This document shows positions 3,441-52,945 of a DNA stretch of 64,000 nt, in pieces. Origin of the DNA: Bacteroidota bacterium (GTDB taxonomy: Bacteria; Bacteroidota; Bacteroidia; Chitinophagales; Saprospiraceae). The notes beneath the pieces were generated by a model. The model was given only the letters and a program-made list of their open reading frames with translations, made no database searches and was not told the DNA's origin. The position numbers were made by a program, and so were the translations under genes. Within the stretch, counting starts at the first letter, position 1. Each line of letters opens with the position of its first letter. The stretch is from the NCBI GenBank assembly GCA_029567325.1, contig JAKQLF010000055.1, positions 1,581 through 65,580 of the forward strand. Direction: 5' to 3'.

Positions 3441-4460
3441 TTAGTAGATAGGGCAAGCTTTCCTTTGAGAAAGAGGCCTTACTTTTGAAAAAATATAACG
3501 CACGTGAAATTCGGGACCTCCACGTTTACTGTTTAATGCATTGTTGATGGTCGTATTATCAACGTCATAACTGAATCCTACATACCATTGCCTGAATTGC
3601 AATGCGACGCTTGGAATAAACGAACCAGCAGTTCTGTATCCCAATCCTAGATAAAGTTGTGTTTCTGAACCTCTTTTTTGGTTTAGATAAATTTTTCCTA
3701 TTGCACCAAAAAGAGATTCCCGATAAGTCGTTTGCAATTGTTGCATGACATTGAGCTGCAAATCAAGCGCATTGATGATTTTGAATGAACCCATAGCAGT
3801 CAACGAAAGATGCATTGGTAACCTTTTGTCGTCGGTTGTGTAAAAATCTGTTTTGGGTTGGTAAAGGTGGAAAGCACCTATACCAGCATCAATTTTTGTT
3901 CTGGTATTTTTTTGCCATCGGTAATTGATACCAGCGCCAGTTTCTAAAAAACTTACCGCACTCAGGTCAAAATTTTCACCTGAAGCACCTCCGCTGTTGA
4001 ATTGAATTCCATCCCATTGTTTATCCCATGTGAGCTCAGTAAGGTTAAATCCCCTTCGCGCAAAACCAAGCATGGCTCCGGCGGTTATCAGGTTTTTCTT
4101 ATCAAGCTCCTTGGTAATGGAACCACTCAAATTGAGTCCAGCAAGAACCAATCTGGAATCACCTTGTTTGTCATAATTGAAGTTGATTCCCCAACCATAG
4201 AAATAATCTTTGTTGACGGGTAAAATGTTGCTATCAAAAGCACCACTGAAGGTTGTCCAAGGTACGGGAACAAATCTCCACTGATCTCTGAGGGAAAGAT
4301 TGTACCGTTGACTTCCATTAAAAACACCTGTAAGCGCAGGGTTTAAATTTTGGGGCGAATTATAAAACTGCGAATAGTGCAAATCTTGCCCATGCAGTCC
4401 TATACCGACCCAAATCAATAGGATCGACAAGAAATGAGTTTTAGTGTAGAATTTGTTCAA
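3441..4460 (-). CDS. PorP/SprF family type IX secretion system membrane protein
   Basis: 339-aa ORF with a signal peptide followed by QDLHYSQFYNSPQNLNPALTG, the characteristic PorP/SprF N-terminal motif. The remainder has beta-barrel-like alternating sequence. It heads an operon with the OmpA-like and T9SS cargo genes. Confidence 0.75.
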   Translation of the reverse strand: MNKFYTKTHFLSILLIWVGIGLHGQDLHYSQFYNSPQNLNPALTGVFNGSQRYNLSLRDQWRFVPVPWTTFSGAFDSNILPVNKDYFYGWGINFNYDKQGDSRLVLAGLNLSGSITKELDKKNLITAGAMLGFARRGFNLTELTWDKQWDGIQFNSGGASGENFDLSAVSFLETGAGINYRWQKNTRTKIDAGIGAFHLYQPKTDFYTTDDKRLPMHLSLTAMGSFKIINALDLQLNVMQQLQTTYRESLFGAIGKIYLNQKRGSETQLYLGLGYRTAGSFIPSVALQFRQWYVGFSYDVDNTTINNALNSKRGGPEFHVRYIFSKVRPLSQRKACPIY

Positions 4461-4952
4461 GGTTATAAGTTTACGTTCTACCCAGAAAGTTTTACCCTTT
4501 CTGAATCATTCTTAAATTGAGTTCAATATGTTCATAGTTCTAAGATCAAAAATTGTGCTAATTTTTAATATGAACTAATATTTATGTTTTACAAGCTGAT
4601 TATCAAGCATATGCACTATAACTATTAATTTTTGGTATTGAAAATGCTAGGTCCGTCGTGTGCAAAATCAATCTACCATCTACTAAAAGTATGGTGTAGT
4701 AATCTCATGGAGAGTTGCCTTTTGAATTAGAATTGAATGCTAAAGTAAGCAATAAGACCCAATTGAAAAAAGCTTACTTAAAGAAAATAATATATTATTA
4801 TTTTTAAATATTTACTTTCTCAACATATTATATTTTGCAATAATAGATAATACTTATTATATATTTCTTAAATATGATAGTCGATTTTTGCCATGTTGCA
4901 GTGATAATTAAGAAGATAAGCATTATAAATAATCGTAATTATATTACATTTG

Positions 4953-5498
4953 ATGACTACTAAAATTATACTTATGCGAATTTCAGATATAGGGCAATTG
5001 CCAAAATTTTTTGACAGATATATCACTTTGGTGGAGGATATCGATTTGATGTCTGGCTTGGTAAAATATCAGTCACTTTTCACCAATGATGAATACGAAA
5101 AAGTGGTGGAATTGGGAGATATGGTTTATGCAAAAGGTAAGTGGACCATCAGAGAAATCGTGCAACATCTCATAGACAATGAACGGGTGCAAAGTTATCG
5201 GGCATTGCGTTTTTCGCGCGGTGATATGACTATTTTACCTGGTTATGATGAAGATTTATTGGCGGCGGGTGCGAATGCCAATGATCGGTCTCTGGATGCT
5301 TTATTACAAGAATTTGAAGTCGTGCGTAGATCATCATTACTCCTCTTTTCGTCCATGACTGAAGATCAAATGTTGATAAAGGGCAATGCTAATGCCATTG
5401 AAATATCCTCATTGTCTCTCGGTTTCCAGATAATTGGACATCAAATTCATCACAAAAATGTCATCAATGACCGATATTTTCCTTTATTGGGCCAATAA
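4953..5498 (+). CDS. DinB-family (DinB_2) metal-dependent four-helix-bundle protein
   Basis: The ORF has the helical-bundle pattern with conserved His positions (IVQHLIDNE ... IIGHQIHH). The start is ambiguous: TTG 4950, ATG 4953 or ATG 4974. Confidence 0.6.
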   Translation: MTTKIILMRISDIGQLPKFFDRYITLVEDIDLMSGLVKYQSLFTNDEYEKVVELGDMVYAKGKWTIREIVQHLIDNERVQSYRALRFSRGDMTILPGYDEDLLAAGANANDRSLDALLQEFEVVRRSSLLLFSSMTEDQMLIKGNANAIEISSLSLGFQIIGHQIHHKNVINDRYFPLLGQ

Positions 5499-5546
5499 AA
5501 TAATGAATACCCCTAGACTTCCGTTTATGACAAACAAAGACTATAA

Positions 5547-6164
5547 ATGAAATATCATTTACTTTTTTTCCTGTGCCTTATCACTGAGATTGCGTTTGCA
5601 CAATTCAATTTTATAGGTAATTTTCAATCAAATAATTATTTGGATTGGCATGGTAAAAATCTAGCTAACCCAAGCCCAGAAACACTTGCAGCATTTGATG
5701 GATTAAAAGGTTTGGGGTTGGATGCAGAGTATTTGCTACAACCAGACAGGGAACGCCAATTTTACTATCTGGGCAATATAGGTGCTGATATCACTTTGGG
5801 AAATGCTGATTATCAGAAAATTATATATCCTCATATTGGGCTTGGTATTCTTTTCTATCCTTTCAATATGAATGGCGATTGCGATTGTCCCAGTTTCTAT
5901 CAAGAAGGTACTTTTTTTAGTAGGGGTTTACACTTTGCACTCAAAGCCAATGGCGGTCTTATGAAACTTACAGATCAAAAGGGTCAAATTCAAGGATTGT
6001 TTGAAGCCAATGCGGGTATAAATATACCGATAAGCAAGACGCAATCCCTTGCCCCATTTGTAGGATTTGCAATTGGTACGAGTGTCAAAAATGCATTATT
6101 GGAGGATCAAAATAAATCAACCCTCAACCAGTTAATTTTTGGAGTGAGGTATTCCATTCAGTAA
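5547..6164 (+). CDS. Hypothetical outer-membrane beta-barrel protein
   Basis: 205-aa ORF with a signal peptide (LFFLCLITEIAFAQ), alternating Gly/aromatic beta-strand pattern, and a C-terminal aromatic-rich strand (FGVRYSIQ). Confidence 0.45.
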   Translation: MKYHLLFFLCLITEIAFAQFNFIGNFQSNNYLDWHGKNLANPSPETLAAFDGLKGLGLDAEYLLQPDRERQFYYLGNIGADITLGNADYQKIIYPHIGLGILFYPFNMNGDCDCPSFYQEGTFFSRGLHFALKANGGLMKLTDQKGQIQGLFEANAGINIPISKTQSLAPFVGFAIGTSVKNALLEDQNKSTLNQLIFGVRYSIQ

Positions 6165-10503: not shown

Positions 10504-12021
10504 TTAAGAAGTTTTCTCTGGTTTCATTTGAGGAAAGAACAGAACATCTTGAATAGAATTTTGATTGGTCATGATCATTGCCAATCGATCCATTCCTATA
10601 CCCAATCCAGCAGTCGGTGGCATTCCATACTCCAACGATCTGAGGAAATCTTCATCCAACATCATGGCTTCTTCATCACCCCTTTTGCCCAATTCTAGTT
10701 GTGACTCAAATCTTTCTCTTTGATCGATAGGATCATTGAGCTCAGAAAAAGAATTACAAATTTCTTTGGCATTGCAGATGGCTTCAAATCTTTCGACAAG
10801 ACCAGGTTTAGTTTTATGTTTTTTGGCAAGCGGAGACATTTCTACAGGATAATCAGTAATAAATGTAGGCTGAATGAGTTTGTGCTCTACGTGTTCACCA
10901 AAAATTTCATCAATGATTTTGCCTTTACCCATGGTATTGTCAACATGCACTTTGAGACTAGCTGCAGCATCCCGCAATTGATCTTCGTCCATTTCTGATA
11001 TGTCAACGCCTGTAAATTCTTGAATGGCTTCATACATGGTATATCGCTTCCATGGAGCTTTGAAGTTGAGGACATTTTCGCCGACTTGCACTTCCGTTGT
11101 TCCATGAAGATCTAAGGCCACTTTTTCGACCATTTCTTCCACTAAGCGCATCATCCACGCATAGTCTTTGTAAGCCACATATAATTCTATCTGAGTGAAT
11201 TCAGGATTGTGAAATCTGCTCATACCTTCATTGCGAAAATCCTTGCTAAACTCATAAACGCCATCATAACCACCAACGATCAACCTTTTGAGGTAAAGCT
11301 CATTGGCTATCCTCATATACAAAGTCATATCGAGGGTATTGTGGTGCGTTTTAAATGGTCTGGCCGCTGCACCGCCGTACAAAGGTTGCAAAACAGGAGT
11401 CTCTACTTCCAAATATCCTTTTTCATTTAGATATTCTCTCATAGAGTTGTACATCCTAGTACGTTGTTCGAATACTTTTCTGACATGAGGATTTACGATT
11501 AAGTCCACATAACGCATTCTGTACCTTTGTTCTGGATCAGTAAAAGCATCGTGCACATTGCCATCAGCATCAGTCTTTACTACAGGTAAGGGTCTCAAAG
11601 TCTTTGAGAGCAATTTCATTGAAGAAACATGCACACTGATTTCACCTACTTGTGTAATGAAAACATGACCGGTGATTCCAATAAAATCGCCCAAGTCCAT
11701 CAATTTCTTGAAAACATCGTTGTACAAGGTTTTATCTTCATCGGGACACAACTCATCCCTGTTTAGATAAATTTGGATACGACCTGTGCTATCCATAATT
11801 TCTGCGAATGAAGCTTTACCCATGATGCGTTTGGACATCAATCTTCCCGCAAGGCTTACATTTGCAAATTGCTCATCTCCTTCTTTATATCCTTCCTTGA
11901 TTTTATCTACCTTCATGTTTACCTCAAAAGTATCACTCGGAAAAGGGTCAATGCCCAAGTCCAACAATTTCTGAAGGTTCTCTCTTCTGATGATTTCTTG
12001 TTCGCTCAAATGTTTTTGCAT
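10504..12021 (-). CDS. lysS: Lysine--tRNA ligase (class II)
   Basis: Full-length class II LysS features: OB-fold N-domain, FRNEG motif 2, and GLGIGMDRL motif 3. The ATG at 12021 ([16 protein letters not shown]) gives the usual N-terminus. The track's GTG start at 12078 is less likely. Confidence 0.9.
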
Positions 12022-12152
12022 GCCGCTCAAAGTCTGTTGTTTTTGTAAAAAGTTGTGCAAAAATAATAGCTTAGACACTATGATGAGTCAATGTTGACTT
12101 ATTTTTTGAAAAATAGAGAATGTCAATCAATTATATATTAAATAAAACATAT

Positions 12153-12297
12153 TATAAGTCTGTAGACTTATATTTGAACTTTATAAGTCTGTAGACTTAT
12201 ATTTGCACTTTATAAGTCTGTAGGCTTATAATGATGCTTTATAAGTCTGTAGACTTATATTTGCACTTTATAAGTCTACAGACTTATATTTGTACTT
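12153..12297. repeat. Five exactly phased 29-bp tandem repeats, each with a 20-bp palindrome TATAAGTCT-GT-AGACTTATA
   Basis: Palindromes lie at 12153-12172, 12182-12201, 12211-12230 (one mismatch), 12240-12259 and 12269-12288 (centre flipped to AC). The 9-bp linkers are TTTGAACTT, TTTGCACTT, ATGATGCTT, TTTGCACTT and TTTGTACTT. Positions were counted directly. Confidence 0.95.
12261..12292 (+). promoter_or_regulatory. Candidate Bacteroidota sigma-A promoter for the SatD-like gene (TTG ... TATATTTG), embedded in the repeat array
   Basis: A TATATTTG (TAnnTTTG) box lies at 12285-12292, 28 nt before the ATG at 12320. A TTG at 12261-12263 lies 21 nt upstream of it. Equivalent boxes occur in repeats 1, 2 and 4. 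Confidence 0.4.
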
Positions 12298-12319
12298 TAT
12301 TTGTAAAAACTAAAAAAAC

Positions 12320-12955
12320 ATGATCTTGAAAGCTGTAATTACAGGAGATTTAATATCATCATCAATTTTCAAACCTGAGCAGAGAAAAACAATTCAGATT
12401 CATTTAAAAGATGTGCTTGAAAAAATTTATGCAATTGATGAAACAAAATTCTTTATTTTCAGAGGCGATAGTATACAAGGAATCATAACTAACCCAAAAT
12501 ATGCATTAAGAGATGCCATATTTATTAAAGCTGGATTAAAATCATTGCAATTTGACAAAGGGAAAAGGGCATCAAATGTTGACATCAGATTATCAATCGG
12601 TCTGGGGGAGATATCATTTTATGGAGAATCTATTCAAGAATCTGACGGTCCAGCATTTCATTTTTCAGGAAGAGAGTTGGAAAATTTAAAAAAATCGAAT
12701 CGAAGTTTATCTTTGACAAGTGCAGATGATGGCGAAAACAAAAAATGGCAAGTTATTTTAGGTTTGATGGAAGATGTAATGACAAAATGGACAATATCAT
12801 CAGCAGAAATTGTTTATAATTTATTATTAGTAAATAATGAAGCAGCCATCAGCGAAATTTTAAAAATAAGTCAGCCAGCAGTAAATTTGAGAAAAAAGCA
12901 TGCAGGTTGGGAAGCTATAAAAGCAACCATAGAATATTATGAGCATTCATTTTAA
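12320..12955 (+). CDS. SatD-family protein (nucleotidyl-cyclase-like N-domain plus C-terminal HTH)
   Basis: The N-terminus AVITGDLISS...FIFRGDSIQG resembles the SatD / cyclase-fold pattern. The C-terminal SAEIVYNLLLVNNEAAISEILKISQPAVNLRKK looks like a sigma-70-region-4-type HTH. The family call is from memory. Confidence 0.55.
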   Translation: MILKAVITGDLISSSIFKPEQRKTIQIHLKDVLEKIYAIDETKFFIFRGDSIQGIITNPKYALRDAIFIKAGLKSLQFDKGKRASNVDIRLSIGLGEISFYGESIQESDGPAFHFSGRELENLKKSNRSLSLTSADDGENKKWQVILGLMEDVMTKWTISSAEIVYNLLLVNNEAAISEILKISQPAVNLRKKHAGWEAIKATIEYYEHSF

Positions 12956-12964
12956 AATTGGATA

Positions 12965-13669
12965 ATGATAACCTTATTGAAATTAGTATTGTCTCATTTA
13001 TTGATAAGTTTTTTCATTCTGCCCAAAAAATGGAGTGATGAAAAAGAAGAAAAAGGTTTTAAATCAAAATATTTATACCTGCAGACTGCAATCATTGGAA
13101 TTGGGGCTTTAATTGCCCTTTCAGATATAAAGTATTGGATTATTGTAGTTTTAATTGTTATAAGTCACTTGCTGATTGAAGCCTGTAGAATAAAATTTTT
13201 AAGTGTAAATTTATTATCTTTTCTTTTAGTACAATTTTTACATTTAGTTGTTTTTATTTATTGTGTAACCTATTTAATGGCCGAACCCATTGCGATAAAC
13301 TTTTCTATAAACACTATAAATCTTGCAATAATTGTTGGCTTTCTCTTTATCACTTGCCCTGCTGGTATTATTGTAAATTTAGCAACTAAATCCTGGCAAG
13401 AAGAAATAAATCAAACTAAAGAAGAAAGAGACAGTCTAGAAAATGCAGGAAAATGGATTGGTATTTTCGAGAGAATTTTAATTCTTATTTTTATCCTAAT
13501 AAACGAATCACAGGCGATAGGATTTCTTATAGCGGCTAAATCAATTTTGAGGTTTAGCGATAGAAATCAAGACCGTCAAAGAAAAGAAACTGAATATGTC
13601 TTAATTGGAACACTAATTAGTGTAACAATTGCCATTTGTATAGGAATAGCCTTAAAATCATTGTATTAA
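12965..13669 (+). CDS. DUF3307-family polytopic membrane protein
   Basis: About 6 predicted TM helices. The conserved-looking C-terminal block GKWIGIFERILILIFILINESQAIGFLIAAKSILRF matches my recollection of DUF3307. It starts 9 nt after the SatD-like gene. Confidence 0.55.
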   Translation: MITLLKLVLSHLLISFFILPKKWSDEKEEKGFKSKYLYLQTAIIGIGALIALSDIKYWIIVVLIVISHLLIEACRIKFLSVNLLSFLLVQFLHLVVFIYCVTYLMAEPIAINFSINTINLAIIVGFLFITCPAGIIVNLATKSWQEEINQTKEERDSLENAGKWIGIFERILILIFILINESQAIGFLIAAKSILRFSDRNQDRQRKETEYVLIGTLISVTIAICIGIALKSLY

Positions 13670-13672
13670 TCT

Positions 13673-13945
13673 ATGCTCAAAATAGCATTTCACAACAGCT
13701 ATAAATATGCTTTGCCAGAAGGCCATCGTTTCCCCATGATCAAATATGAACTGATCCCAGAACAATTATTATATGAAGGGACGGTGAATTCAGATAATTT
13801 TTTTATTCCCGATCAGTTGACTTCATCTGAAATTTTATTGACACACTCAGCCGAATATCTCCAAAAACTAGAATCGCAGACGCTATCTGAAAAGGAAATC
13901 AGACGCATTGGTTTTTTCCACTTTAAGAACTTTCAAACTTTATGA
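13673..13945 (+). pseudogene. Histone deacetylase (HDAC/AcuC) family gene remnant: only the first ~81 codons are retained
   Basis: MLKIAFHNSYKYALPEGHRFPMIKYELIPEQLLYEGT...LTHSAEYLQKLE...EIRRIGF is the normal N-terminus of ~300-aa bacterial HDAC-like proteins. The catalytic core is absent. From about 13916 the reading frame is encoded by a tandem repeat (FHFKNFQTL*). Confidence 0.7.
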
Positions 13946-14000
13946 ACTTTCAAACTTTATGAACTTTCCACTTTAAGAGCTTTCAAACTTTATGAACTCT
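13916..14000. repeat. ACTTT-word short tandem repeat (~17-bp units ACTTTCAAACTTTATGA / ACTTTCCACTTTAAGAG)
   Basis: Read directly: TTCCACTTTAAGA ACTTTCAAACTTTATGA ACTTTCAAACTTTATGA ACTTTCCACTTTAAGAG CTTTCAAACTTTATGA ACT. A related copy lies at 48072-48127. Confidence 0.9.
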
Positions 14001-14473
14001 TACCTTTTCTGCTTCAAAGACCAAGAAACCACAAAAGAAGCAACCATTTCTCCCTTTTCATTGATTGCCGTAGAATGCAAATCAAAAGTCCCAGTTCCAG
14101 TTTGCGAAGCCATGATTTTCTTAATTTCATCTTGTACAACAAGGCCATCTTCACAGATAAAACTGATCACTCCAACCGCTTTTTTACTAAAATTAGCTTT
14201 GAAGTCGGTGACTAACATGGACCAATTACCATTACCTTCAATGTGGTGCATGACCAAACCTCCTGTAGAAAGCTCTGCCGAACCACAAAGCGCCGAAAAG
14301 TACATCGATTTAAATGGGTTTTGGTTTGTCCAACCATATTTCGTTTTGACCACACATTTCGCATCATCCAAACTGAATACTTTAACACCCCAAAAAAATA
14401 AACTGGGTAGTTTAGTAAATACAAACCACCGATACTTTAAAGGATTGAGAAGTATGTTACTGATTTTGCTCAT
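14000..14473 (-). CDS. DUF4442-like hotdog-fold (thioesterase-like) protein
   Basis: 157-aa ORF. The N-terminus ...KYRWFVFTKLPSLFFWGVKV... and the central SMYFSALCGSAELSTGGLV fit my recollection of DUF4442. It overlaps the upstream hydrolase gene's 3' end by 17 nt. Confidence 0.5.
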   Translation of the reverse strand: MSKISNILLNPLKYRWFVFTKLPSLFFWGVKVFSLDDAKCVVKTKYGWTNQNPFKSMYFSALCGSAELSTGGLVMHHIEGNGNWSMLVTDFKANFSKKAVGVISFICEDGLVVQDEIKKIMASQTGTGTFDLHSTAINEKGEMVASFVVSWSLKQKR

Positions 14474-19693: not shown

Positions 19694-19737
19694 AGACGAG
19701 AGCAGAAAGACGAGAGCAGAAAGACGAGAGACGAAAG
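19694..19737. repeat. Purine-rich 14-bp tandem repeat (AGACGAGAGCAGAA x2, plus a degenerate third unit)
   Basis: Units at 19694-19707 and 19708-19721, then AGACGAGAGACGAAAG at 19722-19737. It starts 27 nt after the MFS stop codon. Confidence 0.85.
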
Positions 19738-48071: not shown

Positions 48072-48127
48072 TTTTTCACTTTATGAACTTTCAAACTTTA
48101 TGAACTTTATGAACTTCCAAACTCTAT
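48072..48127. repeat. ACTTT-word short tandem repeat, second locus
   Basis: TTTTTCACTTTATGAACTTTCAAACTTTATGAACTTTATGAACTTCCAAACTCTAT shares the 27-nt string CTTTATGAACTTTCAAACTTTATGAAC with the 13916-14000 tract. Confidence 0.85.
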
Positions 48128-52861: not shown

Positions 52862-52945
52862 CCCATTTCAATTAAGGCAATGGGATTTCAATGGGATTTC
52901 AATGGGATTTCAATGGGATTTCAATAGATTTCAATTGATTTCAAG
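52862..52945. repeat. 11-bp tandem repeat AATGGGATTTC (4 perfect copies plus degenerate flanking copies)
   Basis: Perfect units at 52879-52889, 52890-52900, 52901-52911 and 52912-52922, then AATAGATTTC and AATTGATTTC. A degenerate CCCATTTCAATT precedes them. The tract starts 3 nt after the SRAP stop codon. Confidence 0.9.

Follow-up and report, generated by a model that had tools for sequence, protein, structure and literature searches.

A phased array of palindromes upstream of satD in Bacteroidota and its probable role as an autoregulatory operator

Introduction

A contig from a Saprospiraceae genome (JAKQLF010000055.1, NCBI GenBank assembly GCA_029567325.1) carries five palindromic units in tandem, at an exact period of 29 bp, in the spacer between a lysS-like gene and a satD-like gene. 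This array is described here together with the genes beside it and its counterparts in other bacteria. The stretch that was analysed, 64,000 nucleotides from positions 1,581 to 65,580 of the forward strand of the contig, is called the window, and coordinates are positions in the window unless another locus is named. Loci in other genomes and metagenomes carry numbers beginning with L. Comparison of these loci suggests that the array is probably a cooperative multi-site operator through which the SatD-like protein represses its own promoter.

SatD and the protein encoded next to it, DUF3307, have been named but are uncharacterised. In the searchable literature no operator, regulon or biochemical function of SatD is reported, most matches being papers on satellite DNA, and apart from two reports SatD is described by name only. 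A meta-analysis of transposon sequencing in S. pyogenes singled out satD as its one accessory gene, found in 71% of genomes, that nevertheless scored as essential (PMC11323703). Fructose stress elicits a response of the satCDE-ffh cluster in S. mutans (PMC12077213).

The locus

The array sits in a divergent spacer of about 300 bp. On one side, on the minus strand, lies the lysS-like gene (10504..12021, likely ATG at 12021), which matches the Pfam family of class II tRNA synthetases (D, K and N). It has a TATTTTTG box of its own at 12058-12065 on the minus strand, and it lies outside the conserved module described below. On the other side, on the plus strand, lies the satD-like gene (12320..12955), whose product is the candidate binder of the array. 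It is followed on the same strand by a SatC-like DUF3307 gene (12965..13669, Pfam PF11750), the second member of a conserved gene pair, which encodes a very hydrophobic, probably membrane, protein. The SatD-like protein matches Pfam PF16264 over residues 7-196, a full-length match above the gathering score (29.1 bits, cut-off 29). Public data contain an identical protein, whose 90% cluster has members named Saprospiraceae bacterium. A first-pass annotation, made from the sequence alone, had placed the array between lysS and a SatD-like gene, and the Pfam families found on the two strands agree with it.

Anatomy of the array

Five head-to-tail units of 29 bp occupy positions 12153-12297, with starts at 12153, 12182, 12211, 12240 and 12269. 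Tandem Repeats Finder, run on the window, reports 12152-12300 with period 29, 5.1 copies and a score of 226, so that the first-pass reading of five phased units holds. Every unit opens with a 9+2+9 inverted repeat, TATAAGTCT-NN-AGACTTATA. This had been called a 20-bp perfect palindrome. It is an inverted repeat, but not a perfect one, since the 9-bp arms flank a 2-bp centre (GT or AC) that is not self-complementary.

Each inverted repeat is a predicted operator site. Site 1 (12153..12172) is the 20-mer TATAAGTCTGTAGACTTATA and fits the family consensus TATAAG.CT..AG.CTTATA given below; site 2 (12182..12201) is identical to it, and the same 20-mer is exact in unit 4 (site 4, 12240..12259). Site 3 (12211..12230) has a single arm change, A to G at 12224, which is position 14 of the site and variable in the family. 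Its spacer has no TTTG, nor has that of the corresponding unit in a related Saprospiraceae genome, L003. Site 5 (12269..12288) has the centre AC where the other units have GT. Both departures had been noticed at first pass. No further copy of the 20-mer with up to three mismatches occurs in the window, and shuffled sequences give an expectation of zero.

In units 1, 2, 4 and 5 the right arm runs into the box TATATTTG, of the form TAnnTTTG, on the plus strand at 12169, 12198, 12256 and 12285, again in agreement with the earlier reading. The last of these (12285..12292) is the proximal -7 box discussed below; the other three occupy 12169-12176, 12198-12205 and 12256-12263 (span 12169..12263). 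By itself TAnnTTTG is a weak signal: the window is AT-rich, and its 107 matches compare with an expectation of 89 +/- 10. What makes the four boxes significant is solely that they belong to the repeat. The window spacers of units 2 and 4 are identical, and that of unit 1 differs from them by one base.

Occurrence in relatives

Searching the genome and its relatives for the 20-mer had been proposed at first pass. Two scans were made, and the array recurs before satD in both.

The exact-pattern scan covered one genome per species, 596 Gb in all, with an 18-base pattern. In L003, the same lysS/satD spacer holds five units in the same 29-bp phase, and this locus is the only match in that genome. 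In a Roseivirgaceae contig, L007, a SatD gene is immediately preceded by four units with a 29-bp period. Single matches in unrelated taxa (L002, L008, L012, L015, L018-L020 and L027) are about at the level of chance, our own estimate being roughly 9 sites for an 18-base pattern in 596 Gb.

The same 20-mer, with the centre GA, is also found in Flammeovirga species (L001, L004-L006, L009, L011, L013, L014, L016, L017 and L021-L026). There it is embedded in a dispersed element of about 170 bp, present in several copies per genome and made of four hairpins: GCGCAAGTG..CACTTGTGC, TATAAGTCTGAAGACTTATA, AAAAGTCTACAGACTTTT and GGTCCAAGTC..GACTTGAACC. The element has no match in Rfam and appears to be distinct from the satD arrays.

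The metagenome scan was blind to genes. It looked for two TATAAGNCTNNAGNCTTATA palindromes with a free gap of 0-30 nt, which allows any distance from 20 to 50 bp between sites. It returned 27 loci; neighbouring sites are 29 bp apart in 26, and a single locus has 28 bp. When all open reading frames (ORFs) were searched with a SatD profile, a SatD gene was found to begin just downstream of the array in 24 of the 27 loci. DUF3307 comes next after satD wherever the contig continues, which is the case in most of these loci. Three arrays lack satD: L045, to which the discussion returns, and L038 and L052, where the array is at the end of the contig, so that the gene may have been cut off.

Units within one array are more alike than their counterparts in different species, as can be seen by comparing 12153-12297 in the window with 4103-4247 in L003. 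The locus L049, with four identical spacers, shows the same homogeneity within the array as the window does. Arrays therefore seem to undergo conversion or duplication, while the number of units and their phase are kept.

A different spacing is found in L010 (JBLHWH010000079.1), where two operator sites stand 44 bp apart with a decayed site in between. This contig is filed under a metagenome-assembled genome of Halioglobus (Gammaproteobacteria), and its SatD is 52% identical to the window protein. A homologue with that same identity, P0003, is named Saprospiraceae by NCBI, which suggests that L010 was mis-binned.

Other palindromes at the same period

A second line of evidence comes from SatD proteins that were chosen without regard to DNA. 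Twelve homologues were picked by protein search alone, and DNA was obtained for eleven (P0028 had none). The next gene is DUF3307 in all twelve look-ups. The other neighbours are different at each of the twelve loci and include RmuC, glycerate kinase, 4HBT, aminotransferase, arginase, 7TMR-HD, radical SAM and GntR genes, among others.

Directly upstream of satD, nine of the eleven loci have tandem palindromes of other types, all at a period of 28 or 29 bp. Several of these arrays were missed by repeat finding and were then revealed by a direct count of half-site positions. The sequence TATTCC-N8-GGAATA is found in three sites at 28 bp both in L055 (Pontimicrobium) and in L058 (Bizionia), and GGTTGAT-N8-ATCAACC in three sites at 28 bp in L057. 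The remaining arrays have a period of 29 bp. They consist of TATAACC-N6-GGTTATA in three sites each in L060 and L062 and in two plus two sites in L063; of TATAAGG-N6-CCTTATA in four sites in L061; of TTTAAG.CC..AGGCTTAAA in two sites in L064; and of sites resembling TATAATGAT-AA-ATCATTATA, four in number, in L065. At a further locus, L059, there are two direct repeats 29 bp apart. A strict spacing rule of 28-29 bp thus appears, from these sequences, to span at least six operator classes, and the period and the core stay constant across SatD proteins that are only 35-50% identical.

The palindrome also changes together with the protein. The predicted recognition helix of the window SatD is residues 183-194, ISQPAVNLRKKH. 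Proteins with TATAAG-type sites have AV[NH]xR in this helix and those with TATAACC sites have A[VS][RH]KR, while QDAISKR goes with TATTCC and SAQNISKL with GGTTGAT. Such tracking of the palindrome class by the helix is what would be expected if SatD reads the sites.

Conservation within the unit points to a DNA site

Palindromes can be conserved because a protein binds the double-stranded DNA, or because the transcript folds. The two can be told apart by the pattern of conservation within the unit, for which 88 units from 25 non-identical arrays were compared; pairing was counted over the 82 distinct units. Almost no variation is seen at positions 1-6 (TATAAG), 8-9 (CT), 12-13 (AG) and 15-20 (CTTATA). 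The other four, 7, 10, 11 and 14, are free to vary and show no complementarity: pair 7/14 is Watson-Crick in 24 of the 82 distinct units and pair 10/11 in 16. No compensatory double change was seen at any pair in these units. The 9-nt spacer begins rich in T and is otherwise unconserved, but its length is fixed. The arms are therefore conserved in sequence and not in base pairing, which points away from an RNA hairpin and towards double-stranded DNA that is read by a symmetric protein. The array region does fold much better than shuffled sequences (z = -11.5), but a strongly negative folding score is an automatic result of palindromes, and no Rfam family reaches or approaches its gathering score in the region.

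The SatD and DUF3307 proteins

The SatD family is large and uniform in length, with 4,424 clusters (at 50% identity) at E <= 1e-3 and 2,731 at E <= 1e-10. In an alignment of 45 homologues, 36 match PF16264, the best with an E-value of 1.6e-15. Residues T8, D10, S14, G49, D50, Q53, G94, G96, G110, S116 and G117 are invariant in this alignment, and the motifs VITGDI..S, FRGDSFQ, D.R.AIGIG and ESDG.AF..SG can be recognised.

An AlphaFold2 model of the window SatD has a mean per-residue confidence (pLDDT) of 95.9 and a predicted template modelling score (pTM) of 0.92. In the model, the first ~150 residues resemble class III adenylyl and guanylyl cyclases and GGDEF domains (Foldseek probability 1.0, E-values of 1.5e-5 to 4e-4). 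The structures matched include 5mbg, 4zmm, 4wp9 and 7r65, the last being a bacterial cyclic UMP (cUMP) synthase. A profile search of the PDB also matches SatD to the cyclase Ma1120 (E-value 0.006), with D10 and D50 aligned to metal-binding aspartates. No SatD residues could be assigned to the base-specifying positions or to the transition-state Asn and Arg that complete the catalytic set of such enzymes. The last ~55 residues form a helix-turn-helix (HTH): the Sigma70_r4_2, Sigma70_r4, HTH_24 and GerE models each match between 5 and 18 of the 45 homologues. The modelled fold is thus a palm domain of the class III cyclase/GGDEF type followed by an HTH resembling region 4 of sigma-70.

For DUF3307, no relative with a solved structure was found, and profile scans recognised no protease, toxin or cyclic nucleotide (cNMP)-binding domain. 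Neither SatD nor DUF3307 is matched by any NCBIfam or PADLOC model. The two ORFs that follow likewise have no PADLOC match, and a known defence system was set aside for that reason.

Promoter geometry

In promoters read by sigma-A of Bacteroidota, a TTG or TTTG lies about 19-21 nt upstream of the -7 box. The -7 box itself, TAnnTTTG, occupies -12..-5 in start-site maps of Flavobacterium (PMC9723704). If the proximal box at 12285-12292 has the same position, transcription is predicted to begin at about 12297, and the 5' leader would be some 23 nt long. A candidate -33 element is provided by the TTTG at 12260-12263, 21 nt upstream of the box, as the first-pass annotation had pointed out. The predicted proximal promoter has both features of a sigma-A promoter in this phylum, TAnnTTTG and the upstream TTTG, and its box is kept in L003, where units 4 and 5 have it.

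Relative to this predicted start, site 5 covers -28..-9 and its right arm gives the TATA of the -7 box, while site 4, beside the -33 element, covers -57..-38. The arrangement is not peculiar to the window. A right arm fused with TTTG into a box is found in 15 of the 25 arrays; eleven have one such box, three have two, and the window is alone in having four. In all 15, one site falls at -28..-9, and in 9 of these the next site falls at +1..+20. A separate TATATTTG follows the last site in L007, L046, L047 and L049, and this site then lies at about -41..-20. Arrays of the TATTCC and TATAACC classes likewise fuse the right arm to TATATTTG. The palindromes thus overlap the predicted promoter of the gene for their candidate binder, as in autoregulated HTH repressors, and sites over the -7 box, the -33 region and the start are in the positions of a repressor.

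The array had also been read as a chain of overlapping consensus promoters. Comparison does not support this reading, as four boxes are found in only one of the 25 arrays and the two distal boxes (12169-12176 and 12198-12205) are lineage-specific. In L003, TTTG is present only in units 4 and 5, and the spacers of units 1 and 2 are unrelated to those of the window. Together with the nearly identical spacers of the window, this indicates recent copying of the distal boxes by conversion or duplication. They are best explained, judging from the aligned units, as a by-product of the homogenisation of units, neither ancestral nor selected.

A model of autorepression

The observations can be combined into a mechanism. 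One SatD dimer would bind each 20-bp palindrome, with TATAAGnCT as the half-site, and adjacent dimers would touch. Contact of this kind would account for a centre-to-centre distance that is fixed at 28-29 bp while the sequence of the 8-9-bp spacer drifts. The promoter of the satD-DUF3307 operon would be built into the array, with the right arm of site 5 and the TTTG behind it serving as the -7 box and the TTTG after site 4 as the -33 element. Once filled, the sites at -57..-38 and -28..-9, and in many relatives also that at +1..+20, would occlude the promoter, so that the operon is autorepressed. The cyclase-fold domain may sense or turn over a nucleotide-like ligand and thereby alter DNA binding. 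Under this mechanism the status of satD in S. pyogenes, accessory yet essential (PMC11323703), is as expected for the repressor of a harmful partner.

The first-pass annotation had suggested a multi-site operator, with the HTH-bearing SatD-like protein as the obvious binder. Both suggestions gain comparative support from the linkage to satD in 24 of 27 metagenome loci, the subfamily-specific palindromes at 28-29 bp, the differences in the recognition helix between operator classes, and the recurrent fusion of the right arm to a box in 15 of the 25 arrays and in two other operator types. The role of SatD as an autorepressor acting through the array is rated here as probable.

Several observations weigh against it. 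The relation between array and satD is not strictly one to one: the L045 array (2909-2957, two sites at 29-bp spacing) has neither SatD nor DUF3307 on its 5-kb contig, where the neighbouring ORFs have no Pfam match, and L040 has a second array (4245-4322, three sites at a 29-bp period) downstream of DUF3307. This second array lies about 130 bp upstream of a gene resembling homogentisate-1,2-dioxygenase (4451-5644), which may be an extra member of the regulon. No clear array was found upstream of satD in L056 (Thermoflavifilum). The predicted promoter geometry covers only some arrays: a fused TAnnTTTG box is absent from 10 of the 25, and in six no exact box occurs within the array or directly behind it. 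From the window to L003, divergence is greater over the whole array than over the half of the spacer nearest lysS. A period of 29 bp is about 2.75 helical turns, which places neighbouring dimers on different faces of the DNA and is unusual for side-by-side cooperativity. The match between operator and helix also follows phylogeny and is not independent proof. Finally, literature searches gave no report of binding, footprinting or start-site mapping for any SatD protein.

A bolder form of the model is conceivable, though it should be taken as speculation. SatD and DUF3307 may form an undescribed, widespread and self-contained module in which SatD polymerises on the phased array (four sites span about 11 turns) and keeps its membrane partner tightly shut off, and in which a nucleotide signal that the palm domain either senses or makes leads to release from the DNA. 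In its extreme form the module would resemble a toxin or defence system whose host dies when the repressor is lost, as is hinted by the status of satD in S. pyogenes.

Alternative explanations

If SatD does bind the array, it could still act as an activator or a dual switch, with the distal sites recruiting or stabilising RNA polymerase. Its HTH resembles region 4 of sigma-70, and in L007, L046, L047 and L049 the last site stops some 20 nt short of the predicted start, leaving the -7 box uncovered, an arrangement that can suit activators. Activation is nevertheless unlikely, because a site lies over the -7 box in 15 of the 25 arrays and a further site at +1..+20 in 9, which are classic positions for a repressor; the behaviour of satD as an essential accessory gene in S. 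pyogenes also fits a repressor better (PMC11323703). A somewhat less likely possibility is that another, unlinked transcription factor binds the palindromes and that satD is merely the gene under its control. A small regulon acted on in trans could produce both the L045 array, with no satD nearby, and the second array of L040, before an unrelated gene. Such a factor would, however, need to have evolved together with SatD, given that the class of palindrome changes with the SatD subfamily and its recognition helix. In the related Saprospiraceae genome, moreover, the exact pattern matches at satD alone, the window has no copy elsewhere, and no DNA-binding protein other than SatD is a constant companion of the array.

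Other explanations do without a repressor altogether. The repeats may form a stack of promoters, multiplying -33 and -7 elements so as to raise or tune the transcription of satD, with the palindromes being secondary. The window itself suggests this, as its four TATATTTG boxes are in phase and each TTTG lies 21 nt before the TA of the next unit. Elsewhere it is the palindrome and the period that are conserved, not the box: 11 arrays have one box, 10 have none, and L003 lacks the distal two, which makes a promoter stack improbable. Still more improbable is an element acting at the level of RNA, a transcribed row of hairpins serving as a leader, attenuator or small RNA. Its good folding score is one that any array of palindromes must have, while compensatory changes are absent, pair 7/14 is non-complementary in 51 of the 82 distinct units, which would break a 9-bp stem rich in A and U, no Rfam family reaches threshold, and sites lie upstream of the predicted proximal start. 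There is equally little to be said for an iteron-like array for replication or partition, which the first-pass annotation had offered as its other option, or for a neutral minisatellite or dispersed repeat. The array is indeed tandem, phased, AT-rich and intergenic, and the similarity within arrays shows turnover by duplication or conversion. Its sites are palindromes and not direct iterons, though, and it stands 5' of satD in unrelated chromosomal contexts. A Pfam scan found no rep, par or cas gene near the array, the neighbours being lysS, satD and DUF3307, and the GC skew does not turn at 12.2 kb. A minisatellite would not be expected to keep its period and core across proteins that share 35-50% identity, which goes beyond what neutral repeats do. 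As for dispersed repeats of the kind represented by repetitive extragenic palindromes or miniature inverted-repeat transposable elements, they were rejected because the window has no other copy and the related Saprospiraceae genome has the unit only at satD. An array of clustered regularly interspaced short palindromic repeats (CRISPR) was rejected as well, since the whole period is 29 bp, the spacer is a semi-conserved 8-9 nt and no cas genes are nearby.

Comparison with known systems

Multiple operators near a regulator's own promoter are known from phage lambda. Its OR1-OR3 and OL1-OL3 are 17-bp sites at a spacing of 23-24 bp, three in each region, which are bound by cooperative dimers and make up the lysogeny switch. 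The satD arrays are alike in that several palindromes are interleaved with the candidate regulator's own promoter in a divergent region. They differ in having up to five sites, a 29-bp period, a protein of another fold and a place in a chromosomal two-gene module.

The iterons of plasmids measure about 17-22 bp, are repeated directly without being palindromic, and are bound by Rep monomers. They are found in origins together with DnaA boxes and an unwinding element, and they take part in autorepression. Like them, the satD arrays are phased tandem repeats in an AT-rich intergenic region beside the gene for the candidate binder. Unlike them, the satD arrays are palindromic, and the origin features that go with iterons (a rep gene, a skew switch) were not found at the locus.

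The operators of BlaI/BlaR1 and of type II antitoxins offer another parallel, a small DNA-binding protein (in the case of SatD a candidate autorepressor) that is paired with a membrane or harmful partner and has palindromes over the promoter. There is no homology with these systems, and the scans of DUF3307 revealed neither a protease nor a toxin domain. The antiphage pairs of Pycsar and of the cyclic-oligonucleotide-based signalling systems (CBASS) resemble the module in that a protein of the class III cyclase fold has a multi-pass membrane protein as its neighbour, and 7r65 is among the structural matches of SatD. They are unlike it in that the module has no PADLOC match, SatD has an HTH and an operator array, and DUF3307 has no recognised cNMP-binding domain; cyclase activity of SatD is putative.

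The closest functional analogue is NrdR. According to three reports (PMC13584703, PMC12051234, PMC9110341), it is a nucleotide-sensing, oligomerising repressor that binds two partially palindromic 16-bp boxes separated by a strict linker of 15-16 bp. The resemblance lies in tandem, partially palindromic boxes that stand at a fixed distance and overlap the promoter. NrdR has a Zn-ribbon and an ATP-cone and acts on the ribonucleotide reductase (nrd) operons, whereas SatD would combine a cyclase fold with an HTH and act on its own two-gene operon. The two NrdR boxes lie about 31-32 bp apart, three turns and thus on the same face of the helix, as against two to five 20-bp sites here at 28-29 bp, or about 2.75 turns.

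Tandem palindromic operators of an autoregulated HTH protein are therefore known. The array described here belongs to a regulator family with no operator, regulon or function described so far, for which the model offers a motif for each subfamily, a 28-29-bp rule, a predicted geometry of autorepression and a candidate sensor with a cyclase fold. If the model is confirmed, SatD would stand for a family of one-component regulators that is new and whose sites follow an unusual rule of spacing, and the finding that satD is essential although accessory would be explained. For annotation, the array serves as a reliable marker of satD promoters in Bacteroidota.

Other repeats in the window

The window contains further short repeats. 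A 17-mer, ACTTTATGAACTTTCAA, is present in about five tandem copies at 13920-14003, at the broken end of a 90-aa ORF (13673-13945) that matches only the first ~60 positions of a histone-deacetylase domain (E-value 0.004). It occurs in tandem again at 48078-48120, with 9 matches against 1.0 expected, and looks like a dispersed tandem-repeat element at a gene truncation. Short tandem arrays are also found at 52878-52944, where CAATGGGATTT is repeated 6.3 times (94% matches), and at 19694-19730, where AGACGAGAGCAGAA is repeated 2.6 times (100% matches).

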